Below, one piece after another: positions 2,564 to 64,000 of a stretch of DNA of 64,000 nucleotides; within the stretch, counting starts at the first letter, position 1, and every line of letters begins with the position of its first letter. The DNA is from Promethearchaeota archaeon. GTDB taxonomy: Archaea; Asgardarchaeota; Lokiarchaeia; Sigyniarchaeales; SOKP01. A program made the position numbers and the translations under genes. The notes below the pieces were generated by a model. The model ran no database searches. It was not told the origin of the DNA and worked only from the letters and a program-made list of their open reading frames with translations. The DNA is taken from NCBI GenBank assembly GCA_048939995.1, contig JBHLOY010000001.1, positions 366,449 through 430,448 of the forward strand, given 5' to 3'.

Positions 2564-2608
2564 ATATTCTCAAATTGGTTAATTAAGATTAAAAAAAAAG
2601 AAGTAAAA

Positions 2609-2824
2609 TTATAATAATTCTTGTATTTGATGTTCAACTTCCGTTTGTACTATAGTTGAGGCGATATTTCTTTTTACAGATTCTTCGATTAAATACTCTG
2701 TTTTTATTAAATCCCGAATTCCGACACGTATTGCTTCGGATCGATTAGGAAACTTACCTTCAGCAACTAGTATTTCTAATACTTTTAAATAGGATTCTGG
2801 TAAATTTACTGAGATTAATTTCAT
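2609..2824 (-). CDS. Ribbon-helix-helix (CopG/Arc/MetJ) regulator, CdrS-like
   Basis: N-terminal beta strand LISVNLP, then G-x-FPNRSEAIR helix motif typical of archaeal CdrS-type RHH proteins. Confidence 0.85.
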   Translation of the reverse strand: MKLISVNLPESYLKVLEILVAEGKFPNRSEAIRVGIRDLIKTEYLIEESVKRNIASTIVQTEVEHQIQELL

Positions 2825-2893
2825 ATTATTTCATTTTATTATGTAAGTTCATATATATATCATATTATTGACGTATTATATTATTATCACGCA

Positions 2894-2909
2894 CATATAT
2901 AAACCTTTC
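2894..2909 (-). promoter_or_regulatory. Putative BRE/TATA promoter of RHH gene
   Basis: Minus strand reads GAAAGG-TTTATATAT about 70 nt upstream of the start codon. Confidence 0.5.
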
Positions 2910-3050
2910 AATGGAAATTGACCCCAAGAAAACCGACAAAAAGAATATCATAACTTTTAACTACTATCTTTTAGATTTAGTTAGTATTAATAGATATTTC
3001 AAATATCCCATAGATAATTTAACTTTTTTATATAAAAATTTAGTAAAATA

Positions 3051-3082
3051 TTTATATGTAACACTATATGTAACATGTAACA
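3051..3082 (+). promoter_or_regulatory. TATA box overlapped by three TGTAACA direct repeats (candidate operator)
   Basis: TTTATAT at 3051; TGTAACA at 3057, 3069 and 3076 (TATATGTAACA twice). Confidence 0.5.
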
Positions 3083-3113
3083 TTAAAATTAAAAAAAAGT
3101 AAGAAGATATATT

Positions 3114-3437
3114 ATGTCAAGTATTCAATCTCAATTAAAAGAGCATTTAGACAAAGCTACGGACTGGGCAAAAATGGAAACTCCGGTCCCCGGTGTATTC
3201 GTAGTGAAAGTTCCTGCTACTAAGACCAGACCTTCATTATTATTTATAGAGGTTAATCCACTCAATGAAGATGGCACACCCATGAAAAGGAAGGGTTTAT
3301 TTGTAGGGTCCAAAGAAATGTTAATCAAGTTTGGTGAAACTTTGAATGATGACAAAGTTTTTCAATTAATTGGAGAAATAGAAAAGGTTAATCCGAAAGA
3401 GGTTAAATCTAAATCCACTAAAAAACTTGAAATGTAA
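3114..3437 (+). CDS. Conserved archaeal hypothetical protein
   Basis: 107 aa ORF with upstream TATA; motif DW..TPVPGVFVVKVP...EVNP...G.P.KRKG resembles an uncharacterised archaeal family. Confidence 0.75.
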   Translation: MSSIQSQLKEHLDKATDWAKMETPVPGVFVVKVPATKTRPSLLFIEVNPLNEDGTPMKRKGLFVGSKEMLIKFGETLNDDKVFQLIGEIEKVNPKEVKSKSTKKLEM

Positions 3438-3515
3438 TTTTTTACTTCAAAATAACTGTTTTTTTCCTATTCCATATTATAGTCTTAATTTTATAATAAG
3501 GATAAAGAAAAATAA

Positions 3516-3800
3516 TCAACGAGCAGATACTCCATCCCAGGCTTTAACCTCAGGATCCTCGTATCCACAAACAGGGCATTTTTGATTGACTTCCCATGCT
3601 TCTAGAGCAGGATGTACACGTGTAAATAGAGATCCGCATTTCTGACAAACTAAATATTTAGCACCGCACTTATCACACATCTTTAGTTGCCCTTTTTCAA
3701 CGAACCTAAAAGTTCGAGCCATCCATTCGTCGTGTACTAAGCGAAAGGTATTACCACCACACTGAGAACAGTTCTTACCATTTTCTTCCATTTCTACCAT
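3516..3800 (-). CDS. Small double zinc-ribbon protein
   Basis: Four CxxC pairs (CSQC, CDKC, CQKC, CPVC) in 94 aa. Confidence 0.8.
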   Translation of the reverse strand: MVEMEENGKNCSQCGGNTFRLVHDEWMARTFRFVEKGQLKMCDKCGAKYLVCQKCGSLFTRVHPALEAWEVNQKCPVCGYEDPEVKAWDGVSAR

Positions 3801-4012
3801 CTTTTCAAAAGAATTATATAAAAAGTATATTATTTTACAAATATAAATTTTACACTTAGAGAAAGGCGGTTATAAGAAGAACCACTAGTCCATTTAACTC
3901 AAAAAAAAGTTTTAATCAGAGTAATTATTAATTATTTTTTTAACCTATACTTTTTTAAATAGGTATATACTGAATACTATATTGTAATTAATAAACATTT
4001 AAGTATTTAAAA

Positions 4013-4486
4013 ATGTCAATTAAGATAGACCTTGCGACTCCTGAGCAAATTGACGCGTTAAGAAAGCTTACTAAGCAGCTTGTAGAGGGATTAGGACAAG
4101 ATTTTGACCCAAAAAGATTCGATTGGGGGATTTCTCGAAGAATCTATGATAAATTGCAGAGACACGGAATACTTATTGCTGTAGATGAAGATAAAGATGA
4201 TGAAGTTGTAGGGATGGTTATTGCTGAGTTACGTATTGATCCTTTTGGAACCTCTGAAGGATATATCAAACAAGTATTTCTTAAGGAGGAATACCGTGGT
4301 AAAGGAATTGGAGAATTACTTATAAAAAAAGCTATTGAACATTTACGTAAGATTAAAGTGGAAAAAATTAAGGTAAATATTAAAGAACAAGCTAAACTAG
4401 CAGCCAATCTCTATGCTAAAATGCATTTTAAAAAAGTTTATGAAGTTTTAGAACTAGATCTATCAAAAGAAAAATTTGAAGATTAG
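4013..4486 (+). CDS. GNAT family N-acetyltransferase
   Basis: Motif A VFLKEEYRGKGIGELL; A..LY.KM.F motif B. Confidence 0.9.
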   Translation: MSIKIDLATPEQIDALRKLTKQLVEGLGQDFDPKRFDWGISRRIYDKLQRHGILIAVDEDKDDEVVGMVIAELRIDPFGTSEGYIKQVFLKEEYRGKGIGELLIKKAIEHLRKIKVEKIKVNIKEQAKLAANLYAKMHFKKVYEVLELDLSKEKFED

Positions 4487-4504
4487 ATTAAAAGCACTAA
4501 ATAG

Positions 4505-5482
4505 ATGATTGATTTAGAAACACCTTGGGTTGAAAAATATCGTCCAAAAACATTTGATGATATAGTTAGTCAAAACATTGCTGTAAACAATTTAAGAGAG
4601 TTTACTAAATCGGGAGATATGCCCCACTTGATTTTTGCTGGTCCTGCTGGCACTGGAAAAACTAGTACAGCTTTAATTGTCGCAAGAGAGATGATTACGA
4701 AAGATAGATATCATAGAAACGTTCTTGAACTAAATGCTTCGGATACCGTAAGGATGGATTATGTCAGAAACGTTATTAAAGATTTCGTGAGTCAGAAAAT
4801 GATAATTGATGATGCTTCTCTAAAATTTATAATTTTAGATGAAGCTGATAATATTCCAGGACAAGTCCAACAAGCTCTTAGAAGGATAATTGAATTATCA
4901 TCTAATAATGTTAAATTCATATTATTATGTAATTACATTAATAGAATTATCGATCCTATTGTTTCTAGATGTGCTGTATTCAGGTTTGTATCTCTCTCAG
5001 AAAAAAAAATAATTGAAAGATTGAAATATATCGTTAAGCAAGAGAATATTAAGATCTCACAAGATAAACGAGACCTATTATATAAAACTTTATTCTTTAT
5101 ATCAGGTGGAGATCTTAGGAAAGCTATAAACACTTTACAGATGTCTGTAGCATTAAAATTAACAGATGATTTAGATTTAGATGAGATTTTAAGAATATCA
5201 GGTTTTCTGGATGAAGAGACATTAGAGAAGTTAGCTAGTAAAATTATTGAACGAGATATGGCGAATGTTAGAGAGATTGTAGATGGAATCATTAACTTTG
5301 ACAGTAGAAATTTGATAAAACAAATTATAGAAATTCTTCCTCAACTTAAAATTAACCCTAAAAACTTAAGCTCTGTAATATCCCATATTGGAACTGTTGA
5401 TTATCGGTTAAGTCAGAGTGCTGATGAAAACATTCAATTAACTTCATTAATAGCAGAAATAATAAAGAATGTTAATATTTAA
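4505..5482 (+). CDS. rfcS: Replication factor C small subunit
   Basis: PWVEKYRP, Walker A GPAGTGKT, ELNASD, Walker B ILDEAD, SRC arginine finger, GDLRKAIN. Confidence 0.96.
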   Translation: MIDLETPWVEKYRPKTFDDIVSQNIAVNNLREFTKSGDMPHLIFAGPAGTGKTSTALIVAREMITKDRYHRNVLELNASDTVRMDYVRNVIKDFVSQKMIIDDASLKFIILDEADNIPGQVQQALRRIIELSSNNVKFILLCNYINRIIDPIVSRCAVFRFVSLSEKKIIERLKYIVKQENIKISQDKRDLLYKTLFFISGGDLRKAINTLQMSVALKLTDDLDLDEILRISGFLDEETLEKLASKIIERDMANVREIVDGIINFDSRNLIKQIIEILPQLKINPKNLSSVISHIGTVDYRLSQSADENIQLTSLIAEIIKNVNI

Positions 5483-5500
5483 GACTTTATAGGGTTAAGT

Positions 5501-6547
5501 ATGAGTACAGAACCTCCAATTTGGCGTATTAAGTATTTGCCTTATACATTAGAGGAAATATGCGGAAGAGAAGTGATAAAAGATAGACTTAATAATTTCA
5601 TCAAGTCAAAAAACTTTCCTCATCTTCTATTTTTTGGACCAGAAGGTATAGGAAAAACTACCATTGCCAGATTGTTCTCAAAATTATTTCTGGGGGATTT
5701 TTTCGATGTTAATTTTAGAATTGTTTATGCAAACGTCCCTTTAACTAGTGAAGAACTAAAAGAGGCTCGTTCTGAAGCTTATATTTCTACAAGTAGGATA
5801 GGAAGTTTAGCTGGAAAAACAATTACTACTCCTGCATTTTTACAAGTAAAAATTAAACCATTTATTCAGTTGAAGGTTTTGGGAGGAGCTCCATTTAAAA
5901 TTTTAATTATAAAAAATTTTGAATCATTGGGATCAAACCAACAAGGATTTCGAAGATTAATGGAAAGTTATGGGACTAATTGCCGGATGATATTAATAAC
6001 TACTAAAATTTCCAATATTATAGATCCTATTATTAGCCGTTGTCAAATATTTCTAGTCCCTCCACCTGATTTTAAATCATTTACAGAATTAATATCTGAT
6101 ATTGCAATTAAGGAATCATTAAAGATTGATAATGAAGCAATTAAATTACTTTACAGATATACTGAAGGTAAAATAGCCAACGCTATAGATTTATTACAAC
6201 TGAGCAGTATAAAAAGCAAAATTGTTGATATTAACAAACTATACGATAATTTAATCAGCTCACAAAAAGATTTAGTAAGAAGTCTGTTACTCTTATGCTT
6301 TAAAGGAGATTTTTTAAAAGCAAGAGATTTATTTCGTAAAATTCAGGGTAGTTATAGATATTCAGCTCATGAAATTTTTAATTTTTTAATGCTTGAGTTG
6401 TTAAAGTTGCCTATTAGCACATTTAGCAAATGCAAATTAATGGATTTAATTTCAAAAGCAGATTTTAGAGCGGTAGATGGAATAGATGTGGATATCCAAA
6501 CTTCTAATCTCATAGCAAAAATATGTTACTTCTCAAACTTTATATAG
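5501..6547 (+). CDS. Second, divergent RFC small subunit (degenerate Walker B)
   Basis: PIWRIKYLP, Walker A GPEGIGKT, SRC kept (IISRC); Walker B position reads IIKNFE; sensor-2 Arg absent (GKIANAI). Confidence 0.9.
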   Translation: MSTEPPIWRIKYLPYTLEEICGREVIKDRLNNFIKSKNFPHLLFFGPEGIGKTTIARLFSKLFLGDFFDVNFRIVYANVPLTSEELKEARSEAYISTSRIGSLAGKTITTPAFLQVKIKPFIQLKVLGGAPFKILIIKNFESLGSNQQGFRRLMESYGTNCRMILITTKISNIIDPIISRCQIFLVPPPDFKSFTELISDIAIKESLKIDNEAIKLLYRYTEGKIANAIDLLQLSSIKSKIVDINKLYDNLISSQKDLVRSLLLLCFKGDFLKARDLFRKIQGSYRYSAHEIFNFLMLELLKLPISTFSKCKLMDLISKADFRAVDGIDVDIQTSNLIAKICYFSNFI

Positions 6548-53694: not shown

Positions 53695-54408
53695 TTATAT
53701 ACCTAAATAAACCTTTTTTATTCGGGGTTCCTTTTCTAACTGTTCTTTGGTTCCCCGCATTTCTATTTTACCTTCTTCTAAGACATGGATATTTTCTCCT
53801 ACTTGCATCCCCAATACAGCATCCTGTTCAACTAAAAGCGCAGTAGTACCTTCATTTTTGATTTTCTCAATAGCATTAAATATATTTGCTTTAATTTTAG
53901 GAGCTAAACCTAATGAAGGTTCATCCATTAATAGAAGTTTCGGATTAGCCATAAGTGAGCGAGCTATTGCTAGCATTTGTTGTTCTCCACCACTAAGTGT
54001 TCCAGCTCTTTGTTTTTTCCTTTCTTTAAGACGTGGAAAAAGTTCAAAAACAAAATTAATTAATTCTTTATATTTTGATTTATCCTTAAGAGAATATGCT
54101 CCCATACGAAGATTTTCCTCAACACTCATATCATAAAAAAGTCTCCTACGTTCTGGGCAATGTGAAATTCCCAATCTAGCAATTTCATTAGCTTTCATAT
54201 CATCTATTCTTACTCCCATGAAAGTAATTTTACCTCGATCAGGTTCTTCTAAACCCGAAATTACTCTAAGAAGTGTAGATTTACCAGCACCATTAGGCCC
54301 TATAACTACGTCAAGAGATTTTTCTTCCACATTTAAATTAATTTCTTCGAGGGATTTTGCCTTACCATAATAATGATATATTTTTTTTAATTCAAGCAAA
54401 TTCTTCAC
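53695..54408 (-). CDS. livF: Branched-chain amino acid type ABC ATPase (LivF-like)
   Basis: GPNGAGKS, LSGGEQQM, DEPSLGLAP, VEQ. Confidence 0.9.
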   Translation of the reverse strand: MKNLLELKKIYHYYGKAKSLEEINLNVEEKSLDVVIGPNGAGKSTLLRVISGLEEPDRGKITFMGVRIDDMKANEIARLGISHCPERRRLFYDMSVEENLRMGAYSLKDKSKYKELINFVFELFPRLKERKKQRAGTLSGGEQQMLAIARSLMANPKLLLMDEPSLGLAPKIKANIFNAIEKIKNEGTTALLVEQDAVLGMQVGENIHVLEEGKIEMRGTKEQLEKEPRIKKVYLGI

Positions 54409-55132
54409 CTTTACCTAAATATGCTTCTAATACAATTTTATTACTTGCAACTTCTTTGGGAGTTGCATCAATAATGAATTTACCTTGGTGCATTGCTATT
54501 ACTCTCGGTACAAGATGCATTAGTTCTCTTAATACATGACCAGTCATAAAGATTGTGGCTCCATCCTCATGTAGTGCTTTGATTAATTCAGTAATAACAT
54601 CTGATTCTTCACGAGATAGCCCACTAAAAGGCTCATCAAGGAGTAAAAGTTGAGGATTAGTACCAAGTGCTTTGGCGATTTGAAGTTTTCTTAAATCCCC
54701 ATGAGGTAATACAATTGGAGGGATTCTAGCTTTATCAACTAAACCTGTAGATGCTAATATAGTACTAGCATATTCTTCTACTCCATAATTTTTTGCAACT
54801 CTCTTACCTCTTGGTGAAAGACAAGATACTGTTACATTATCCAGTAAAGTTAAAAACTTAAAAGATCTCACCAGTTGGAAGGTACGAGCTATTCCTAAGT
54901 TGACTATCTTATAGGGTTTCATACCAGTAATGTTTCGTCCATCAAATCTAATCCTTCCTAAACTTGGTTTCTCAAATCCAGATATTAGATTAAAAATTGT
55001 GGTTTTTCCTGCACCATTTGGTCCAATTAATCCTACAAATTCACCACGATTAATCTCAAAGCTAAAATCATTAACAGCTGTTAAACCGCCATATTTTTTG
55101 GTTAAATTTTTTACTTCTAAAAGAACTCCCAT
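54392..55132 (-). CDS. livG: Branched-chain amino acid type ABC ATPase (LivG-like)
   Basis: YGGLTAV, GPNGAGKT, GIARTFQ, LLDEP, EAYLG. Confidence 0.9.
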   Translation of the reverse strand: MGVLLEVKNLTKKYGGLTAVNDFSFEINRGEFVGLIGPNGAGKTTIFNLISGFEKPSLGRIRFDGRNITGMKPYKIVNLGIARTFQLVRSFKFLTLLDNVTVSCLSPRGKRVAKNYGVEEYASTILASTGLVDKARIPPIVLPHGDLRKLQIAKALGTNPQLLLLDEPFSGLSREESDVITELIKALHEDGATIFMTGHVLRELMHLVPRVIAMHQGKFIIDATPKEVASNKIVLEAYLGKGEEFA

Positions 55133-55159
55133 TTTAAAATTCACATATTTTTTTAATAA

Positions 55160-56188
55160 TTATCGTCCTATTAAAATGTCATATAAATCTTTAAGTTTTT
55201 CTACTATTGGCTTCAAAATACCATGTTCAGCAAATCGTATTACTATTATTAAGATGATAGAAAATATAAATACTGATACATCAGGCCATTCACTAAAAAT
55301 TTCGGCAACAAACCAAAAGAAATATGAGCCTAATGCTGATCCCGAAATAGTTGCTATTCCTCCTAGAGAGGCCATAACTATCGCATAAAATGAATATAGA
55401 GGCTGGTAGACTCCCGGATTTACACCTCGATTATGCATAGCGAATAAACTGCCTGCAATACCCGCAAAAAAAGCGCTAATCATAAAGGCAATGATTTTAT
55501 ATTTTGTTAAATTGATACCAGACGCTTCTGCTCCTTTATTATCGTCTCGGATTGATTTAAGGACAGTTCCCATCTTTGATTTGGTGATCCAAATTAAAAT
55601 TTCAAAAGTAGCGATCATTAAGATTAAATGGATATAATAATTATCTATAGCATTCCTTGAAATTTGTGGGATTTGGGAAATCCCTTCAGATCCTCCCAAC
55701 CAGGGTTCAAACCTAACGTTAAGGAATACATTAAACATAATTAACCCTAAAACCATTGTCCCTAATCCTAAATAGGGCCCTTTAAGTCTTAGGGCTGGAA
55801 TTCCAATCAACAATCCGAATACTACTCCAACCAGAGCTCCAATAATAAGCGCTAGCCACCAGACTGTTTCACCAAATAAAGGAGTGAAAACATAACGAAT
55901 AAAAAATGATGTAATGTAGCCAGCAATCCCGAAAAATATCGCATGCCCAAAGCTAACTTGCCCTGTAAAGCCAGCTAAAAAATCCCAACTTGCCGCAAAA
56001 ATCGCAAAGATCATCGAAGTAATAAAAATACCTAAATAATACCTATTTTGAGTGAAAAGAGGTACAATAAAAAGTGCTATCAAACAAATAACAGTTAATT
56101 TTCCCCTAAAAGTTTTTAGCCAATTAATAAGATAGATTTTTGAACTAGATACTTTTTTCTTTAAACGACTTTTTTCTTTTAATGACAT
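55160..56188 (-). CDS. livM: ABC permease (LivM-like)
   Basis: GQVSFGHA, LRLKGPYL, SIRDD...AEASGIN. Confidence 0.9.
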   Translation of the reverse strand: MSLKEKSRLKKKVSSSKIYLINWLKTFRGKLTVICLIALFIVPLFTQNRYYLGIFITSMIFAIFAASWDFLAGFTGQVSFGHAIFFGIAGYITSFFIRYVFTPLFGETVWWLALIIGALVGVVFGLLIGIPALRLKGPYLGLGTMVLGLIMFNVFLNVRFEPWLGGSEGISQIPQISRNAIDNYYIHLILMIATFEILIWITKSKMGTVLKSIRDDNKGAEASGINLTKYKIIAFMISAFFAGIAGSLFAMHNRGVNPGVYQPLYSFYAIVMASLGGIATISGSALGSYFFWFVAEIFSEWPDVSVFIFSIILIIVIRFAEHGILKPIVEKLKDLYDILIGR

Positions 56189-56218
56189 TTTTTATAATTT
56201 CTCCTATAAGCTTTAGAA

Positions 56219-57079
56219 TTAATAGACTTCTTTTTTTCCAAATAAACCTCTTGGTCGAATTAAAAGTACTAAAATAATCACTATAATCGGTACTATTGCA
56301 GAAAAAGCTGGATCAATAAAATAATTAACAATATTTCTAGTATATCCCATAATAAATGCTCCAACTACACTTCCTTTCAAACTTCCTAATCCACCAAAAA
56401 TTACAATGGCAAAAGAATTTGATAAGACTTCCCAACCCATATGAGGGGCTATAGATGCAGCTGGTACGTATAATATTGCTGCGATTCCTGCTAAAAATGC
56501 TGAAATCATAACAGTATACATAAGTGTCCTATCAGCATTAATGCCCATTAGCATTGCAGCTTCTCTATCTTGAGAAATCGCTCTTATTGATTTTCCAAGT
56601 TTTGATTTATTTATAAAAACCCCTATAATAATTACGATCACAAATGAAGATATTAATATAACAAGAAATTGTGCTGGAAATGACACGCCAAGAATAGTAA
56701 AAGTATAATCCTTTACAGGGCTTGGAACCGTGTGAGGTATGGCATCCCCAAAAACTTTTATGAATTGTTCAAAAAAGAATCCCAATGAAAATGTAATAAT
56801 AAGAATAGCCACATGGTTCTCTTGCAAAGGTTTTATTAGAAGAAGATAGGAAGCCCCACCGACAATAATAATAATAACTAGCGAGAGAATAGTTCCTCCT
56901 ATAAAACCCATTATATTGAATGTCCAGAACAGAATATATCCTGTTAACAAATAAAATAATCCATGAGATAAATTCAAAATTCCCCCAACTCCATAAACTA
57001 ATGAAAATCCCAAGGCAAGTAGCATATAAACAGAAGCTTCAATTGTTCCAAAAATTATTACTTCGGCAATAGGTACCAT
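56219..57079 (-). CDS. livH: ABC permease (LivH-like)
   Basis: ALGFSLVYG...NLSHG, GKSIRAISQD..AA.LMGI, RPRGLFG. Confidence 0.9.
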   Translation of the reverse strand: MVPIAEVIIFGTIEASVYMLLALGFSLVYGVGGILNLSHGLFYLLTGYILFWTFNIMGFIGGTILSLVIIIIVGGASYLLLIKPLQENHVAILIITFSLGFFFEQFIKVFGDAIPHTVPSPVKDYTFTILGVSFPAQFLVILISSFVIVIIIGVFINKSKLGKSIRAISQDREAAMLMGINADRTLMYTVMISAFLAGIAAILYVPAASIAPHMGWEVLSNSFAIVIFGGLGSLKGSVVGAFIMGYTRNIVNYFIDPAFSAIVPIIVIILVLLIRPRGLFGKKEVY

Positions 57080-57226
57080 TTTTTATCCTCGATTTATTCC
57101 TAAAATTATTTATAAGTTTAATTTTACTTTAAAGTTTATAAAGCTTTTCTATCAATTTCTAAATTGGCATAAATAAGAATAATAGAGAAAAAAAAAAAAA
57201 ATTGAGGTTACAAGATTGTTTTCTTT

Positions 57227-58615
57227 TTAATCATTGATCCCCCAGGGAGGAATTGCTATAGCTCCTGTTACAATACTATCTGGATAAAGTACATTTCCAG
57301 ATGATATAACACTTTTTGAACCATCTGGTTTCCATTGACAATATAAAGTAGTACCATATGGCCAACCCACTACTGCATCATGAGCCTTATTCCAACCCAC
57401 GTAACCTGTTGAAACACTGTCTCCAATCCATGGGCTAGCTCTATTAAAGCTTTCGAGATACGTTATTAGCGTTTCAGTCTTAAAACTTCCAGTCGCGTTA
57501 ATGCTAGCAGCTATTGTGTTTACAGCGTCATAGGCTCCTACTGCTGTATATAAAGGTTCATGATCAAATGTAGCTATAAAATCATCCCAGAAGGCTATTG
57601 TTAAGTCAGTTTTATTTGTCCTATGAACAGACTGCATTATCGTTTCATAAGCACAATCTCCGCCAGTATCGTCCCAGAATGTATCTAATTGCGATTGAAC
57701 ATCGATGCCTACTAAAAGACATTGGGGTTGGAGAGCTGCATATTGAGTCATCATGTAAATTCCACCTTGAGCTGAGATTACGGGGATTGTTATTTGTGCA
57801 TTTGCCGCCTCTATTTGATTCCAGTAGGTAGCAAAATCTGTTGCTGTAGCAGTAATGGGATATGCAATGTCAGCTACTATGGTATATCCATATAATGGAA
57901 GGTAAGTATTAAGTGCAGTATCCATTGGAATGGTCCAGTCTAAAGCTTCTCGTAAAACTGCCACCTTGTTTATGGTTTTGTTAAGTACAAGAGGATTTTG
58001 TAAATATGCCTTGAGGAAAGCCATTTGGCCGATTTGTGATCCTCCTAATGCAGATGAATTAATAGGCATAACCCTAAACCAATACTTATATCTATTATAA
58101 CTAGAATACGCTTCTCCGTAAACATTATAGCAGAAATAATCGGTTGATGCTCCAGTTCCAAGAAATAACTTTTTAGCATCCATAACGACTTCTACATACG
58201 CTTTTAAAGCCTCTGTTCTAAATCCTCCTATTATATATTCTGCACCATCTACTTCAATAATTTTTTCTGCTGCACCAACTCCCTTAGTAACGTCAAGTAC
58301 AGGGTTTGATTCATCCGTATCTTCAGCTACGAGCCCTATATAGTAAGTCGTACCATTAACTTGAACTCCGCCACCGGTATTTATATTATAGGCTGCAAGC
58401 CAGGCTCCCTCATAATTTCCCTGTCCTTGTATTTCAGTTATACCTCCAAGTAAACCAATCTTAATTATTCGATTATCTGGTATACCTGAAACTCCCGGAG
58501 TTATAAAAGCAGATGCAGCTGGAGTTAATAAAAACCAGACGCCAACGCCTATACCTGCACCAGCGATAGCTAAGACAGCAACTATGGCTAAGATTCTTTT
58601 CATATTTCGTTCCAT
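57227..58615 (-). CDS. ABC substrate-binding protein (LivJ/K-type fold), N-terminal membrane anchor
   Basis: N-terminal TM, IKIGLLG, IN..GG, AYDAV; heads the liv cluster; followed by a U tract (A run at about 57188-57200). Confidence 0.9.
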   Translation of the reverse strand: MERNMKRILAIVAVLAIAGAGIGVGVWFLLTPAASAFITPGVSGIPDNRIIKIGLLGGITEIQGQGNYEGAWLAAYNINTGGGVQVNGTTYYIGLVAEDTDESNPVLDVTKGVGAAEKIIEVDGAEYIIGGFRTEALKAYVEVVMDAKKLFLGTGASTDYFCYNVYGEAYSSYNRYKYWFRVMPINSSALGGSQIGQMAFLKAYLQNPLVLNKTINKVAVLREALDWTIPMDTALNTYLPLYGYTIVADIAYPITATATDFATYWNQIEAANAQITIPVISAQGGIYMMTQYAALQPQCLLVGIDVQSQLDTFWDDTGGDCAYETIMQSVHRTNKTDLTIAFWDDFIATFDHEPLYTAVGAYDAVNTIAASINATGSFKTETLITYLESFNRASPWIGDSVSTGYVGWNKAHDAVVGWPYGTTLYCQWKPDGSKSVISSGNVLYPDSIVTGAIAIPPWGIND

Positions 58616-58782: not shown

Positions 58783-59736
58783 CTATTGATTTATTTTAAA
58801 CAGGTTAAATCCATTAGAAACATGGTCAATTATATCTGATCTTTTGTTAAAAGTCACTTTTAGACCATATACTGATCCTCGGAAATAACTTTCTGCCAGG
58901 ACTAGTATGACACTGCAATGTTCATCAGTTTTTTTAATAATCGGTATTTGTGCCTCCCATTTCGTAAAAAACACATAATTTTTTGCGATATTTATTGCTT
59001 TTTTATAATACTTCATATCTTCAGATGCATTTGATAACTGAGTTTCAAAAATTTTACTATTTTTTTTTGAAAATTGAATTTTCTTTCTTAATCTAAAAAT
59101 GCATAAGTTATCTGAAGAAATTTTTTCATAAATAAAATATCTAAATGGGAATAGACCAGGAATGTAAAGCGCATTAGAAGGCAATTTTGCTTGAATCCAA
59201 ATTTTAGAAATAATGCGATACATGAAATAGAGTAAATAAAATCCAAAAAAGTATTGAAATAGATATGAAAAGAATAGTTGTGGAAAAAAGAAGTATAATA
59301 TTGAATAAAATATTATTACTGTACCTGAGATAAGAGCTAAAACAAAATTAATTGCCCTATCTATAAAAAATCTATACCTTCTTTTCGAGAAGGGATAAAA
59401 AATAGGAATTTTGGACGCTGTCATTAAATCAAGTGAAATATGAAGACTGTAAAAAAGGAATCCGACAACCCAGACAATAACAAAATTTTCATTGGTAATA
59501 AGAGTAAATATACTTGCTGTAAAAAAAGAAAAGATGATTGCAGTAAAATAAGAATGGGATAATCCTTTGTGTGAGAGAAAATTTGATTTTTTAATTAATT
59601 GTAATGGTTCCAAGACAATATCAAAATCAGCAATGATAGCCATAATTATAGCATAGAGAACGATACTAAATGGTAATGAGTTAAGCGTGTAGATACTTAT
59701 AAATATTGCCATTAAAAAGTGTGTGAAAAAATCCAT
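58783..59736 (-). CDS. Membrane metal-dependent hydrolase (YdjM-like)
   Basis: MDFFTH, ADFD, HKGLSHS, LHISLD motifs. Confidence 0.85.
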   Translation of the reverse strand: MDFFTHFLMAIFISIYTLNSLPFSIVLYAIIMAIIADFDIVLEPLQLIKKSNFLSHKGLSHSYFTAIIFSFFTASIFTLITNENFVIVWVVGFLFYSLHISLDLMTASKIPIFYPFSKRRYRFFIDRAINFVLALISGTVIIFYSILYFFFPQLFFSYLFQYFFGFYLLYFMYRIISKIWIQAKLPSNALYIPGLFPFRYFIYEKISSDNLCIFRLRKKIQFSKKNSKIFETQLSNASEDMKYYKKAINIAKNYVFFTKWEAQIPIIKKTDEHCSVILVLAESYFRGSVYGLKVTFNKRSDIIDHVSNGFNLFKINQ

Positions 59737-59885: not shown

Positions 59886-59999
59886 TTATTATAATTGTTT
59901 GTTAAAATAATGGATAAAATATTTATTCTCTTTACCATATTTTTGGCGCAGTATTGTTTTAAGTGACCCCATATCTAATCGTTCTTTTACTTTTTCTCA

Positions 60000-60356
60000 T
60001 CAACATCCTACATCTGGTTGTAATTGAATAAAGCTATTAGGATAGATATTGAATTCAATATTTTCCCTAATGGGGTTAAATTTACGTAAAATTCCATCCT
60101 CATCAGGTGCGTAGGCAAATACTCCGACGTCCTCATATATTAAACCTTCCTCTAAATTTACAAATAGTTGAAGATAACTATGAATGTAACTCTCATATAG
60201 TGGAAATATTGAATTCATAGAATCTTCCATTTCAATTTTATCAACCAATGCTAAAGCTTGGATAAATGTTGCGTTATCATTGAGTTCAAGAGAATACTTC
60301 TTACCCTGTTGGAGACCTTTAATTGGTATACTAATTTCAAATTCTACCTTTTTAAT
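60000..60356 (-). CDS. MoaD/Urm1/SAMP-like beta-grasp protein ending Gly-Cys, probable ATT start; possible selenoprotein
   Basis: Frame extends 36 codons upstream of the track ORF to ATT 7 nt after AGGTGA: KKVEFEISIP..KKYSLELNDNATFIQALALVD...NIYPNSFIQLQPDVGC then TGA TGA. Confidence 0.7.
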   Translation of the reverse strand: MKKVEFEISIPIKGLQQGKKYSLELNDNATFIQALALVDKIEMEDSMNSIFPLYESYIHSYLQLFVNLEEGLIYEDVGVFAYAPDEDGILRKFNPIRENIEFNIYPNSFIQLQPDVGC

Positions 60357-60378: not shown

Positions 60379-60648
60379 TTATATTAAGCCTTTTTCTTTA
60401 AGGAGAATGGGTAAATCTTTTTTCAGTAGAAATGCAGCAGTATATTTTCTTTCATTATCTACTACAATTGAGTTTCCATGTAAATTAAGGCTTCTAGCTT
60501 CTTCAGAATTAAGATTTTTTGTGCTATAATCAATATGTTTAATGTAAGGAGTTAAAACAATGAATACACGGTTCATAAACTTATCCCATTCGCAAGCACA
60601 GCTATCTAATGGCACATAAATGTCCACTTTTAATTTGCTATTTTCCAT
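60379..60648 (-). CDS. Small thioredoxin-fold CxC protein, ArsD-like metallochaperone candidate
   Basis: KVDIYVPLDSCAC resembles the ArsD N-terminal strand/Cys cluster; IVVD strand; ars-type context. Confidence 0.6.
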   Translation of the reverse strand: MENSKLKVDIYVPLDSCACEWDKFMNRVFIVLTPYIKHIDYSTKNLNSEEARSLNLHGNSIVVDNERKYTAAFLLKKDLPILLKEKGLI

Positions 60649-60659
60649 GGTTTAGATCC

Positions 60660-60965
60660 TTAAGAACAATTACATGATTGGTTTGAATTTTTTACTCTAC
60701 TTCTCACATTCCATAAACATCCACAACCAGGCTGTTCTTGCATAATGATAGCTTGGGTGGGGCAATTTCTCTTACAGGCACTGCACTCAGTACAGAGATT
60801 TTCATTAGTTATTTCATACTTTCCATTTTCATTTGGTTTTGGTAATCCAAAAGGGCAAATCTCTCCACACAACCCACAACCATTACAGATATCTTTATTA
60901 ATAAAGATACGCAGATTCTTCATGATTTGTGTGATATTTAAAGACTTAAAATCTATTTCAGTCAA
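60660..60965 (-). CDS. HgcB-like 2x[4Fe-4S] ferredoxin with extra Cys
   Basis: CNGCGLCGEICP, CTECSACKRNCP, then GCGC and terminal CNCS; TTG start after GGAGG; directly after the HgcA-like gene. Confidence 0.85.
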   Translation of the reverse strand: MTEIDFKSLNITQIMKNLRIFINKDICNGCGLCGEICPFGLPKPNENGKYEITNENLCTECSACKRNCPTQAIIMQEQPGCGCLWNVRSRVKNSNQSCNCS

Positions 60966-61010
60966 ACTTAACACCTCCTAATCTACAATATTATTAATTT
61001 TTTATATTAT

Positions 61011-62672
61011 TTAAACAAATATAACTCCAATTGTTAATGAAATCAAGCCTATTATTAAAAAAACCTTATTTAATAAGCTAAATAGGGGATATTCATTTTC
61101 AATTTTTCTTGGGCTTGTTGCCATTGTATAACCACTGGAAGACATAGTGGAAAAAAAAGCAATCCAAAAGAAAAATCCAATATTTATGAGGACATAAAGA
61201 ATTGAACTATGAAGCCACCACGTTAGTAATCCCAAAATACTAATATTAATGAATCCATAGAATATTCCCTTAAATACAAATTTTTGGGTAAAATCTGAAA
61301 GAGGAAACAATAAAAATATAATTAGATTTGTAATTATGACCCAAAGGCAGATTTCCCCAATCCACCAAACCTTATCAAAGTTTGTAAAAATTGCTAGTCC
61401 TAAGAATAGGAAGAATAAAGCGATTATAGGTAAAAGAAACACTTTACGGAAGAGAAATGTAGTGTGGGTTATTACTGCACGCATGCGATGAGACAATTTA
61501 AATTTAGCGAGCTTCATTTTATCTGATTTTTTAGACGGCTTTTCTTTTAAATAGTCTGGTATAAACTTGGACCATACTGGGCCATATTTAACCTTAAATG
61601 GAAATTTTTCGGAACTTTTAGGTAGTTCTGGAATAGCTATTCCGCCAGCAGAAAGTTGAGGAAGCAGAAGTGTTTTTTTATTAGAAATATATTGAATTCC
61701 AGAAGTTTCTACAGCTTCGAGGAGTTGGGAATTACCAAAATTATTTCCGCGAGCCGCACACCATACATTAATCCCATTAGAATCGACACATAATACCCAT
61801 GCGTTGATCTTTTTCAAATCTCGCATAACTTTAATATATGTATAATCATAATTTGCAGTAACAATAATAGGGGAATCTTTATCGGGAGTCCCAGATTCAT
61901 AAATCCCTGGCTCAATAGGAACATGATCCACTTGACCGGTGAAGGTGCAACGGTATATCCTTAATTGAGATTTTATTCCTTTAAATTTTCTCGGTTTAGG
62001 ACGATAATAACCAGGTTCATTTTTTTGATTGACAATTACTTTTTGAAGCTCTAATGCTTGGATAGAGCCATGTTTCCACTTTTTTTGAGTTTTAATTTTG
62101 AATCCGATTGATTCTAGATAATTAAAGAACCATTTAACACGGAAAGTATTTTGTAATCGAAGTCTTCTAATTTTTTTCTTGTACCACCATCTTTTAATAT
62201 TAAAGATTAATCTCCAAAATCCTGAAGGCACAAATTCAGCTCCAATTATTAAACTTCCTTCTGGTTTTAGGACTTTCCATGCATTTCGAAGGAAAATTTG
62301 CTGTTCAAATGGACGTAATTCTGATAACATAAAAGTACTTACTACCACATCCTTAGAAGAATCTTCCATATGTATATCTGAGAAAGTCCCAATTTGATAA
62401 GTTAGTTTCAAATTTTCTTCTTGAGGATAATTCTGCATTGCAAAAGTAATCATCTTAAAATTTTTGTCAATTGCAATAACATTATTACCCTTTAATGCCA
62501 TTTTAGCAGCGAGTACACCTGTACCACATCCAATCTCTAAAACATCTGAAGCATTTACACGATCAAGAATCCATTTCTGGACTTCTTTATTAACTCCCTT
62601 TGTAAGAGTGGTAAATTTTGAATCATATGTATCTGGTTCCTGTTCCAATTTCCTCATATATACGACAGCCAT
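61011..62672 (-). CDS. SAM methyltransferase fused to HgcA-like corrinoid-binding membrane protein
   Basis: N-term VLEIGCGTG..LKPEG; middle PIIVTANY, GINVWCAARG cap helix (61746-61769), LPQL, YGPV; five C-terminal TM helices; ATG 62672 after AGGTG. Confidence 0.9.
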   Translation of the reverse strand: MAVVYMRKLEQEPDTYDSKFTTLTKGVNKEVQKWILDRVNASDVLEIGCGTGVLAAKMALKGNNVIAIDKNFKMITFAMQNYPQEENLKLTYQIGTFSDIHMEDSSKDVVVSTFMLSELRPFEQQIFLRNAWKVLKPEGSLIIGAEFVPSGFWRLIFNIKRWWYKKKIRRLRLQNTFRVKWFFNYLESIGFKIKTQKKWKHGSIQALELQKVIVNQKNEPGYYRPKPRKFKGIKSQLRIYRCTFTGQVDHVPIEPGIYESGTPDKDSPIIVTANYDYTYIKVMRDLKKINAWVLCVDSNGINVWCAARGNNFGNSQLLEAVETSGIQYISNKKTLLLPQLSAGGIAIPELPKSSEKFPFKVKYGPVWSKFIPDYLKEKPSKKSDKMKLAKFKLSHRMRAVITHTTFLFRKVFLLPIIALFFLFLGLAIFTNFDKVWWIGEICLWVIITNLIIFLLFPLSDFTQKFVFKGIFYGFINISILGLLTWWLHSSILYVLINIGFFFWIAFFSTMSSSGYTMATSPRKIENEYPLFSLLNKVFLIIGLISLTIGVIFV

Positions 62673-62712
62673 TAAATACACCTATTTTCTTGTATTTTAT
62701 AATAAAATAAAC

Positions 62713-63771
62713 CTATTGAGATTTCCAAAAACCTCGTTTTTTTAGATACCTGCCTAAATAAACTATTGAAAGCATTATGGGGACTTCCCAAAATAATCCC
62801 ATAGTAGTCCCCAATGCTGCAATTGAACCAACACCATAGATTGCGATAGCAGTAGCGATTGCAATTTCAAAATGACTTGAAGATCCAATAATTACAGTTA
62901 TTACAGCCTCTTTGTATTTTAATTTAAAAAATTTGGTAATTAGGATATTGTATCCAACAACAATAGCAAAACCAACCAGAAGTGGTATTGAAACCAATAA
63001 TAACAAATCTGGATTAAGTACTAGAACTTGTCCATTTAAAGAAAAAAGCACAGCTAGAGTAGTCAATAGAGCTAAAATAGAAATTTTTCCTACTAGAGGG
63101 CGATAAATATTATTAAACCAATCTATTCCCTTGGAAGAAATAATAAGTCTTTTAGATATAATACCAAGTAATAAAGGAAGCCCAATAAAAATTAATGTTG
63201 AAAATAATAAAAGGATCCAATTTATTGGGATGCTTTGAATACCTGTTAATAACGTTACCATTGGAGCATAACCAAATATTATAGTTATGGTGTTTAAACT
63301 AGTATTAATTACATTCTGTTCTTGATTTCCTCGTGCCATCCAGCCCCATACAAGAACCATCGCTGTACACGGTGAACTAGAGAGTAATATAATAGCGACT
63401 GAAAGTTGTTGATTTCCAGCTAAAAACAAATTAACCATCAGTAACCCTATAAAAGGAGCAACTAACCAATTAGAGATTAATGTTAAAATGATAGGTTTAG
63501 GATTTCTTCCCAATTTCTTTAATTCTGAGGCCTGAATATTTAACATTGCAGGATACATCATCAAAAACAAACAAATCCCAATAGGAACTGAAATTTCCCC
63601 TATTTTTATAGCATCAATTGCTTCACTGATGCCTGGAAAAAATTGCGATAAAAGAATTCCAATAAGAATACATAAAGCAACCCATAGGGGAAGAAATTTC
63701 TCAAAAAAACCAATATCTTTCCCTTTCTCTTTCGAAACTTGTTCTATTCGATTTAATCTTTCTTTTTGCAT
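62713..63771 (-). CDS. acr3: ACR3 family arsenite efflux transporter
   Basis: FEKFLPLWVALC, MMYP, NW...P, PCTAMV, FEIAIA, EVPIML. Confidence 0.93.
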   Translation of the reverse strand: MQKERLNRIEQVSKEKGKDIGFFEKFLPLWVALCILIGILLSQFFPGISEAIDAIKIGEISVPIGICLFLMMYPAMLNIQASELKKLGRNPKPIILTLISNWLVAPFIGLLMVNLFLAGNQQLSVAIILLSSSPCTAMVLVWGWMARGNQEQNVINTSLNTITIIFGYAPMVTLLTGIQSIPINWILLLFSTLIFIGLPLLLGIISKRLIISSKGIDWFNNIYRPLVGKISILALLTTLAVLFSLNGQVLVLNPDLLLLVSIPLLVGFAIVVGYNILITKFFKLKYKEAVITVIIGSSSHFEIAIATAIAIYGVGSIAALGTTMGLFWEVPIMLSIVYLGRYLKKRGFWKSQ

Positions 63772-63774
63772 AAT

Positions 63775-63999
63775 TTATTGAATAACCTCTTCTAAAATAA
63801 GTGTTGAATCTTTATTCCTTCTTTCATACTCTCTTCTAATGTTTTTAATAAAAGATTTTAAATTATTTGTAAGTTTATTGAAACTTTCCAAGGAGATACC
63901 ATTAAATATTGAGACTAAATGGATAATACCAGCCACTTCCTTATCGCATGTATGACCAAAACGCGGAGCACGGCATTCATAACAAACATTTAAAGCGAA
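63775..63999 (-). CDS. C-terminal part of a Cys-containing protein, truncated by window edge
   Basis: Open frame FALNVCYECRAPRFGHTCDKEV...EEVIQ*; stop 3 nt before the acr3 ATG. Confidence 0.65.
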   Translation of the reverse strand, partial: FALNVCYECRAPRFGHTCDKEVAGIIHLVSIFNGISLESFNKLTNNLKSFIKNIRREYERRNKDSTLILEEVIQ

Positions 64000-64000
64000 A

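Follow-up and report, generated by a model that had tools for sequence, protein, structure and literature searches.

We analysed a stretch of 64,000 nucleotides (nt) from a Promethearchaeota archaeon of the Lokiarchaeia (contig JBHLOY010000001.1, positions 366,449 to 430,448), which is called the window here. Near its end, one open reading frame (ORF) on the minus strand joins an S-adenosylmethionine (SAM) methyltransferase to an HgcA-like corrinoid membrane protein. The gene belongs to a co-oriented row with gaps of 3-40 nt, which consists of the genes for a DUF166 protein, the arsenite permease ACR3, the fusion, an HgcB-like ferredoxin, a CxC protein and a small protein with in-frame TGA codons (Table 1).

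The fusion gene and its product

The frame runs without interruption from a GTG at 62681 to the stop at 61011-61013 and comprises 556 codons. The ATG at 62672 (MAVVYMRKLEQ...) is the likely start because homologues align from residue 3-4. The anatomy described in the initial annotation, i.e., a methyltransferase, a corrinoid domain retaining its Cys and five transmembrane (TM) helices in one ORF, was confirmed with Pfam, NCBIfam and AlphaFold2. In Pfam, Methyltransf_11 covers residues 48-146 (E 7e-17) and CdhD (PF03599) covers residues 245-345 (E 2e-13). The AlphaFold2 model, for which 59 aligned fusions were the input, has a mean pLDDT of 89.9 and a pTM of 0.87. Its C-terminal part forms long helices at residues 396-432, 439-462, 468-491, 494-519, and 524-555. 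The top fold match of this model in the PDB is the integrative model of HgcAB (9a0b_A, E 3e-12). With PF03599, the model and this match, the HgcA-type layout of a corrinoid domain followed by a C-terminal TM bundle is present in the fusion.

A sequence search of the PDB with the fusion returned no solved HgcA, only corrinoid iron-sulfur protein (CFeSP) and generic methyltransferases. Among solved structures, only CFeSP large subunits are related in sequence to the corrinoid part (2h9a_A, E 2e-9, residues 247-381). The CFeSP large subunit of the Wood-Ljungdahl pathway (AcsC or CdhE) has the homologous corrinoid-binding Rossmann domain; however, it lacks the TM domain, the cap-helix Cys ligand and the methyltransferase domain. 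This genome encodes its true CdhE in a separate gene. For the N-terminal domain, the fold matches are ordinary class I methyltransferases with 12-25% identity.

Table 1 Features of the fusion gene, its operon and the split pair of the same genome. Positions are those of the window unless a locus is named
Feature	Position	Strand	Remarks
CpaM-like methyltransferase::HgcA-like corrinoid membrane protein (fusion)	61011..62672	minus	553-556 aa; likely ATG at 62672
Class I SAM methyltransferase domain	62037..62672	minus	residues about 4-215; motif I EIGCGTG, motif II Asp72
Conserved linker	61932..62036	minus	residues 216-250; consensus PGYYRP...FKG.RSQLRIYRC.FTG; helix 236-247
Corrinoid-binding domain	61527..61931	minus	residues 251-385; homologous to C-terminal domain of CFeSP large subunit / CdhE
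Cap helix NVWCAARG	61746..61769	minus	putative Co-ligating Cys308; clade-invariant Arg311
Membrane domain, five predicted helices	61017..61496	minus	residues 396-555
HgcB-like 2x[4Fe-4S] ferredoxin	60660..60974	minus	104 aa; GCGC-L-W-N after second cluster; CNCS tail
ACR3-family arsenite efflux permease	62713..63771	minus	352 aa; TIGR00832 270.4 bits (cut-off 282.8)
DUF166 (PF02593) gene, 3' part	63775..64000	minus	251 aa overall; extends past window end (L005 6224-6979, minus)
Divergent ArsR with CVCEL	L005 7109-7513, beyond window end	plus	past the DUF166 gene
CxC protein, no Pfam family	60379..60648	minus	89 aa; DSCAC motif
Small protein, last operon gene	59889..60356	minus	..DVGC then TGA TGA, frame continues
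Split-pair CpaM	L003 (G000:C14:25624-28968) 736-1398	plus	220 aa; 254 bits; another contig of the same genome
Split-pair HgcAB-like fusion protein	L003 1435-2532	plus	365 aa; 361 bits; cap helix NVWCGACG

Methyltransferase domain, corrinoid domain and ferredoxin

CpaM: NCBIfam defines CpaM (NF043040) as a "corrinoid protein-associated methyltransferase" that lies beside an HgcAB-like fusion protein. Its status there is "hypothetical equivalog", and our literature searches found no paper on it. The NCBIfam cut-offs are 180 bits for CpaM, 285 for HgcAB_like (NF043039), 275 for HgcA (NF040863), and 99 for HgcB (NF040864). The comparison with the models of HgcA and CpaM that had been proposed at the outset placed the fusion below the cut-off of each, with 147.6 bits for CpaM, 173.5 for HgcAB_like and 163.3 for HgcA. 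The CpaM match extends over residues 6-213 of the fusion and profile positions 2-215 of 216. In a six-frame search of the genome, which ranked about 30 class I methyltransferases, the CpaM model gave 253.7 bits on the CpaM gene of a split pair, 150.7 on the fusion and at most 68.7 on all others. The split-pair CpaM aside, the fused domain outscores the next-best methyltransferase by 82 bits, and the CpaM likeness of the N-terminus noted in the initial annotation proved to be correct. Fusions of neighbouring clades pass the CpaM cut-off (211-283 bits). Judged by its sequence, the fused domain is a divergent member of CpaM.

Methyltransferase residues: Domains from all architectures, including stand-alone CpaMs and triple fusions, were aligned to derive a CpaM signature outside the SAM motifs. 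It consists of M-(K/R)-x-L-E...P..Y-(D/E) at the N-terminus, Asp111, S-E-L (120-122), Glu149, and Pro152, and the signature residues of the fusion are common to stand-alone CpaMs. M9, E13, D72, D111, S120, G142, and P152 are invariant in A2, and L12, P16, Y19, E121, and E149 are nearly so. Among the residues of the SAM motifs, G51, G53, and G55 are invariant across the 59 fusions, and D72 is nearly invariant. With these residues, the fused domain looks functional and CpaM-specific.

ArsM: An ArsM-like reading of the domain was rejected, as it scores 35.4 bits against NF008823 (cut-off 263) and lacks a conserved cysteine triad for binding As(III). What ArsM shares with the fusion is the class I SAM methyltransferase fold, placement in ars operons and arsenite as a possible substrate. 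ArsM, however, transfers the methyl group directly, whereas in the fusion it would travel via cobalt.

Cap helix: The variant cap helix NVWCAARG noted in the initial annotation was recovered in the translation. The canonical N(V/I)WCA(A/G)GK is not matched, as the Cys is kept but GK is replaced by RG. Cys308 is invariant across the 59 aligned fusions. In the 380 proteins collected, NVWCAARG occurs in 162 methyltransferase-fused proteins and 42 fragments, whereas NVWCAAGK occurs in 101 stand-alone proteins and in no methyltransferase-fused one. As a sequence signature, NVWCAARG thus marks the clade of the window. Sampled NVWCAAGK proteins score 360-496 bits on NF040863. On the fusion, HgcAB_like stays below its cut-off, yet it is the best corrinoid model.

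Ferredoxin: The ferredoxin is a separate chain encoded 36 nt downstream of the fusion, and in all complete loci it follows the fusion directly. It reaches 54.6 bits on NF040864 (cut-off 99). Across 22 homologues from several classes, conservation extends to both cluster motifs (CX2CX2CX3C), to GCGC-(L/I)-W-(N/D), which is invariant, and to CC or CxC at the terminus. GxGC and a terminal Cys pair are reportedly the cysteines by which Smith et al. in 2015 defined HgcB. By its motifs, the partner ferredoxin is closer to HgcB than to the fused ferredoxin domain of HgcAB-like proteins.

Trees: In trees of the corrinoid and TM region, canonical HgcA forms one clade with support 100, and the fusion lies outside it. 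It belongs to a separate clade of NVWCAARG fusions, whose Lokiarchaeia core also has support 100. FastTree gave a polytomy among canonical HgcA, the NVWCAARG clade and the HgcAB-like clade. In a quick maximum likelihood (ML) tree with IQ-TREE, the NVWCAARG clade weakly joins canonical HgcA (SH-aLRT 87-92, not starred). A constrained topology uniting all methyltransferase-associated forms had a log-likelihood 8.65 higher (p-AU 0.74). The deeper branching order is not settled by these trees; hence, we make no claim on which form is ancestral.

Canonical HgcA and HgcB: The canonical proteins share with the fusion and its ferredoxin a CFeSP-derived corrinoid domain, Cys-on ligation, a C-terminal TM bundle and a separate hgcB with GxGC and terminal cysteines. 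Frequent control by ArsR or MarR, ACR3 as a neighbour and SAM as the (in our case proposed) methyl source are also common to both. The differences are the methyltransferase domain, which is missing from canonical HgcA and from all 101 NVWCAAGK proteins, and the end of the cap helix, which is GK in the canonical form. The conserved fold, Co-ligating Cys, TM domain and HgcB-type partner with GCGC and terminal Cys pair, together with the ArsR- or MarR-plus-ACR3 contexts of canonical loci and the weak ML grouping, would suit a mercury methylase of the canonical HgcAB type that has its SAM-binding step built in. We consider this quite unlikely, as the scores are far under the cut-offs (163 vs 275 for HgcA; 55 vs 99 for HgcB), the cap helix is without the diagnostic (A/G)GK and the fusion lies outside the strongly supported canonical clade. 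The topology that joins all methyltransferase-associated forms is likelier as well. Furthermore, organisms with related fused HgcAB did not methylate Hg according to Podar 2015, as that work is cited in PMC10083202. The warning in the initial annotation against assuming Hg activity is apt, as the fusion lies outside the canonical HgcA clade.

Alternative layouts and distribution

Split pair: The genome encodes a second system of this type on another contig (L003). There, the corrinoid gene starts 36 nt after the CpaM gene, and its product has no Cys tail. The window fusion is 33% and 34% identical to the two proteins. Two paralogous corrinoid methyl-transfer systems thus occur in one genome, and presumably they have different targets. 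Complex prediction for the L003 pair used a mark that 58 of 80 solved complexes reached, as did 2 of 110 mismatched pairs. The pair scored 0.41 (best control 0.00; partner pLDDT at least 74), which lies in the range up to 0.60 where, of those reaching the mark, 7 of the 80 solved complexes and both mismatches are found. The runs agreed in at least 50% of contacts. This gives weak support to a predicted association of CpaM with the HgcAB-like protein.

Adjacent CpaM genes: In three loci from unrelated metagenomes, a stand-alone HgcAB-like gene is directly preceded by a bona fide CpaM (257-278 bits), with a 4-nt gene overlap in two of the three. Including the pair of this genome, all four stand-alone HgcAB-like loci have an adjacent upstream CpaM. 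In L065 and L066 (JGI 3300057035, 3300057048), a CpaM and HgcAB-like pair is located amid two ketoacyl synthases, two acyl-carrier proteins, a nitroreductase and an SBF-family transporter. From this setting, the substrate used by that lineage might be organic and not a metal.

Triple fusions: CpaM-HgcA-HgcB proteins of 582-644 aa also exist in other clades, and both NCBIfam models score above cut-off on them. One is encoded in L048 (G102:C116, 5682-7472, minus strand), and P0254, P0256, P0257, P0265, P0267, P0268, P0272, and P0285 are further examples. If M, A, and B denote the methyltransferase, HgcA-like and ferredoxin modules, the layouts are M + AB, MA + B (as in the window) and MAB. As fused and split forms of CpaM and HgcA-like proteins exist, the window gene is an alternative layout of a catalogued, uncharacterised system.

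Comparison with the catalogued form: Both have the methyltransferase signature, an HgcA-type corrinoid and TM module with a cap-helix Cys, a two-cluster ferredoxin and an obligatory partnership of methyltransferase and corrinoid protein. In the catalogued form, a free methyltransferase accompanies a corrinoid-ferredoxin fusion, whereas in the window the corrinoid protein is joined to the methyltransferase, and the ferredoxin has a gene of its own. Thus, of the features described by NF043039, the CpaM partnership is present in the fusion (N-terminally fused), but a C-terminal ferredoxin in the same chain is not. The window halves differ also in being below the cut-offs (148/180; 174/285) and in their low identity to the in-genome pair. 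The window ferredoxin has GCGC and a Cys tail, which the fused ferredoxin domain of L003 lacks. The cap-helix signature NVWCAARG of the window clade and the setting in an ArsR/ACR3 operon are further differences.

Initial interpretation: The fusion had been interpreted as a Rosetta stone that identifies the enzyme loading the methyl group on the corrinoid. This interpretation holds in part. The link between methyltransferase and corrinoid protein was already contained in NCBIfam and is evident from the split pair of this genome and from three of three metagenome loci. As an identifier of the loader of canonical HgcA, the fusion does not serve, because purified canonical HgcAB accepts the methyl group of SAM in the absence of a methyltransferase and none of the 101 NVWCAAGK proteins carries the domain. 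That SAM is a methyl donor for HgcAB, as stated in the initial annotation, agrees with the literature (PMC11588087).

Distribution: A word-indexed protein search gave 603 database homologues of the fusion. The best 120 of these are all about 550 aa long, have both domain types, cover 94-100% of the query and are 63-100% identical. Named sources of the best homologues are metagenome-assembled genomes of Promethearchaeota, Hodarchaeota, Hermodarchaeota, Odinarchaeota, and Lokiarchaeota. A survey of 400 species genomes of the Asgard phylum showed full-length fused ORFs in several classes. Identity is 55-100% within the window's family, where most genomes have one, 43-58% in sister families belonging to the order and class, and 29-36% in at least three more families (codes f16, f19, and f31). 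Single-contig genomes are among the carriers. When 1.84 billion representatives at 50% identity were searched exhaustively, about 25-30 distinct clusters (524-644 aa) proved to have the methyltransferase-corrinoid architecture. The fusion is thus neither an artefact nor unique to this genome, the two outcomes that the initial annotation had listed as refuting; an assembly artefact was rejected because of the full-length homologues in many Asgard genomes, some of them in a single contig. Close stand-alone "halves" in databases were considered as split forms of the clade and were rejected too, as almost all are partial fragments at contig ends.

Database labels: Homologues of the fusion are at present merely labelled "methyltransferase domain-containing protein". 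The MK-D1 orthologue P0161 (nr), by database name from Candidatus Prometheoarchaeum syntrophicum, is labelled "Acetyl-CoA decarbonylase/synthase complex subunit gamma". The label is wrong, as the genuine CdhE is another member of the gene family. In the aligned columns, P0161 is identical to the gene of L049, which is from a closed 4.3-Mb genome. In practical terms, genes of the fusion are thus hidden under an uninformative name or wrongly under CdhE.

Literature: Our searches found no description of a methyltransferase-HgcA fusion and none of CpaM or HgcAB-like systems. In the one evolutionary study covering Asgard sequences, Lin et al. 2023 placed these in a "fused HgcAB" clade after removal of the first 327 alignment columns, and the methyltransferase domain is unmentioned (PMC10083202). 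An N-terminal methyltransferase domain would fall within these removed, poorly aligned positions. NCBIfam already records the pairing of methyltransferase and corrinoid protein (CpaM, HgcAB-like), for which no publication was found. The MA + B layout, the NVWCAARG signature, the HgcB-type partner and the consistent placement in an ars operon of Lokiarchaeia appear to be undescribed in the searchable literature.

Operon context and proposed function

ACR3 and ArsR: The ArsR/ACR3 operon is the strongest functional clue for the fusion. The ACR3 gene ends 31-40 nt upstream of the fusion gene and is the only one in the genome. In the window's family, 29 other species genomes were compared. ACR3 is immediately upstream of the fusion in 20 of them, ArsR was detected beside it in 13, and ACR3 and/or ArsR is adjacent in 28; the remaining locus has MarR instead. 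For a wider sample, 24 loci were compared together with 6 kb on either side. Ten of these have an adjacent ArsR, including two loci of another class (L045, L046), and 6 have an adjacent ACR3, including the presumed P. syntrophicum locus; MarR was found in 2. The order of ArsR, ACR3, fusion and ferredoxin also recurs in another family that belongs to the same order (L049 and L055). As the sampled genomes are mutually related, these counts describe conservation and not independent events. An imperfect palindrome between arsR and the operon was not counted as an operator because the DNA there is very AT-rich.

Small proteins: The CxC protein is conserved 3' of the ferredoxin in 17 of the 29 family loci, and homologues of the last small protein follow it in the same number. 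If the two TGA codons of the small protein are taken as selenocysteine, a GC-U-U motif would result. Language-model neighbours of the CxC protein (0.86-0.89, below the trust line) are Thioredoxin_3 proteins (PF13192), which is a lead only; this family is called ArsE in one paper.

DUF166 and ArsR: The DUF166 protein is encoded by the first gene of the operon and has a CYECRAPRFGHTC motif. Its gene is upstream of ACR3 in at least 11 of the 29 family loci. The divergent ArsR has a set of four cysteines, namely an N-terminal CSC and CVCEL in helix 3, in an arrangement like that of CadC-type sites. Its effector therefore need not be arsenite alone.

Other neighbours: Downstream of the operon, a branched-chain-type ATP-binding cassette (ABC) uptake system and a YdjM-family membrane protein are encoded (54392-58615 and 58783-59736, minus strand). 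The ABC uptake genes (binding protein, two permeases, ATPase) are syntenic in L009.

Canonical loci: Canonical hgcAB is reported to have acr3, arsR, and arsM as neighbours and to be induced by arsenic, with ArsR control responsive to arsenic and S-adenosylhomocysteine (SAH) (PMC7438021; bioRxiv 10.1101/2022.10.17.512643). One canonical locus that we fetched has the order ArsR-hgcA-hgcB. Another (L069; ENA ERZ21831104 ctg97504c, 2529-5717) has MarR, hgcA (360 bits), hgcB (116), and ACR3 (387).

Non-metal acceptor: The acceptor might also be a membrane lipid, a quinone-like or a small organic compound, or Co(I) might dehalogenate a halomethane, and the ars neighbours would then be a regulatory convenience. 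In favour of this, the nearest solved methyltransferase folds include the membrane-lipid and quinone methylases PmtA (8ys9), UbiG (4kdc), and Coq5, many loci beyond the window's family are without ars genes, the L065 pair is set amid ketoacyl synthase and acyl-carrier genes, and a 2026 preprint describes dechlorination of CCl4 by HgcAB (10.64898/2026.04.26.720869). However, these fold matches are generic class I matches of low identity, the ferredoxin retains the thiol-rich motifs tied to metal handling by HgcB, and in 28 of 29 family genomes the fusion keeps its operonic place with ACR3, ArsR and the small Cys/Sec-rich proteins. We regard a non-metal acceptor as improbable.

Proposed mechanism: Our preferred interpretation, which we hold tentatively, is a single-chain CpaM/HgcA-like corrinoid methyl-transfer system with a separate HgcB-like ferredoxin and a metalloid acceptor, likely As(III)/Sb(III). 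The domain identities, the conservation of the fusion, its catalytic and ligand residues, and the operon with its conservation in the family were observed directly. For the individual chemical steps and the substrate, we infer by analogy with HgcAB, for which transfer from SAM via methyl-Co to Hg has been demonstrated (PMC11588087). In the first step, the two [4Fe-4S] clusters of the ferredoxin would reduce the bound cobamide to Co(I). Then, the CpaM-type domain would bind SAM and methylate Co(I) to give a Cys308-ligated methyl-Co(III). Finally, the methyl group would be passed to a thiophilic metal(loid). The cysteine-rich ferredoxin tail would offer this acceptor on the face of the membrane, perhaps aided by the downstream CxC protein and the Cys-Sec-Sec protein. 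As the fusion lies between the only ACR3 of the genome and the ferredoxin, under a divergent ArsR, the acceptor is most likely As(III)/Sb(III) and not Hg(II).

Evidence against a metalloid acceptor: Several points weigh against this proposal. ACR3 exports inorganic As(III) and not a methylated product. In the methyltransferase domain, a cysteine triad for As(III) binding as in ArsM is not conserved, and only C52 of motif I is. Neither ACR3 nor ArsR was found within 6 kb in 11 of the 24 loci of the wider sample, which are from other families (L040-L044, L047, L050-L054), and L006-L008 and L035 are loci of the MarR type. The genome has a bona fide ArsM elsewhere (L070, G000:C38:112500-120500, 3662-4576, minus strand; 341 bits, cut-off 263), so that a second arsenite methylase is not obviously needed. 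Regulators of the ArsR/SmtB type are able to sense other metals or SAH (bioRxiv 10.1101/2022.10.17.512643). Canonical HgcAB takes the methyl group of SAM without a methyltransferase (PMC11588087); hence, the fused domain may do something else. As a side observation, the arsM gene is apart from any ars gene, and its neighbours encode an acyltransferase, an AbrB/MazE-like protein, a HAD hydrolase and an EamA transporter.

Repair module: Reductive, SAM-dependent reactivation of cobalamin enzymes is established for MetH, which has a SAM-binding reactivation domain and uses flavodoxin. Similarly, the fused domain and the ferredoxin could be a repair module that reductively re-methylates cofactor after oxidation to Co(II), while another donor or acceptor is used in turnover. 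One possibility is that a methylated arsenical is demethylated to As(III), which ACR3 then exports. Such a role would fit the finding on canonical HgcAB (PMC11588087), whose chemistry does without a dedicated loading domain. Operonic coupling to an As(III) exporter is also easier to reconcile with production of As(III) than with its consumption, and ArsM is already present in the genome. Against it, the domain is a class I Rossmann methyltransferase and not the MetH activation fold, and no separate methyl-donor or -acceptor methyltransferase is conserved in the operon. In addition, association with a methyltransferase is obligatory across the non-canonical branch, either fused or adjacent, which suggests a stoichiometric role. 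Repair is the main rival reading but an unlikely function, and methyl transfer to a metalloid by the single-chain system is preferred.

Implications: Mercury methylation is not known to benefit the cell. For this reason, the native purpose of HgcAB-type enzymes is a long-standing question. The methyl source of the HgcA cofactor was addressed only in 2024, with SAM as an unexpected donor. The clade described here is a natural construct in which a SAM methyltransferase is covalently joined to the corrinoid protein, and this makes cobalt loading and As(III) as acceptor directly testable. As the fusion occurs, by database name, in a cultured Asgard archaeon, induction experiments are possible. It is conceivable, though rather doubtful, that the fusion and its ferredoxin are a cobalamin-dependent arsenite/antimonite methyltransferase. 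Methylated arsenic would then arise in anoxic sediments by a second pathway that does not depend on ArsM. If this holds, the wider HgcA family would natively serve to handle metalloids, with mercury methylation as a side reaction in one of its branches.

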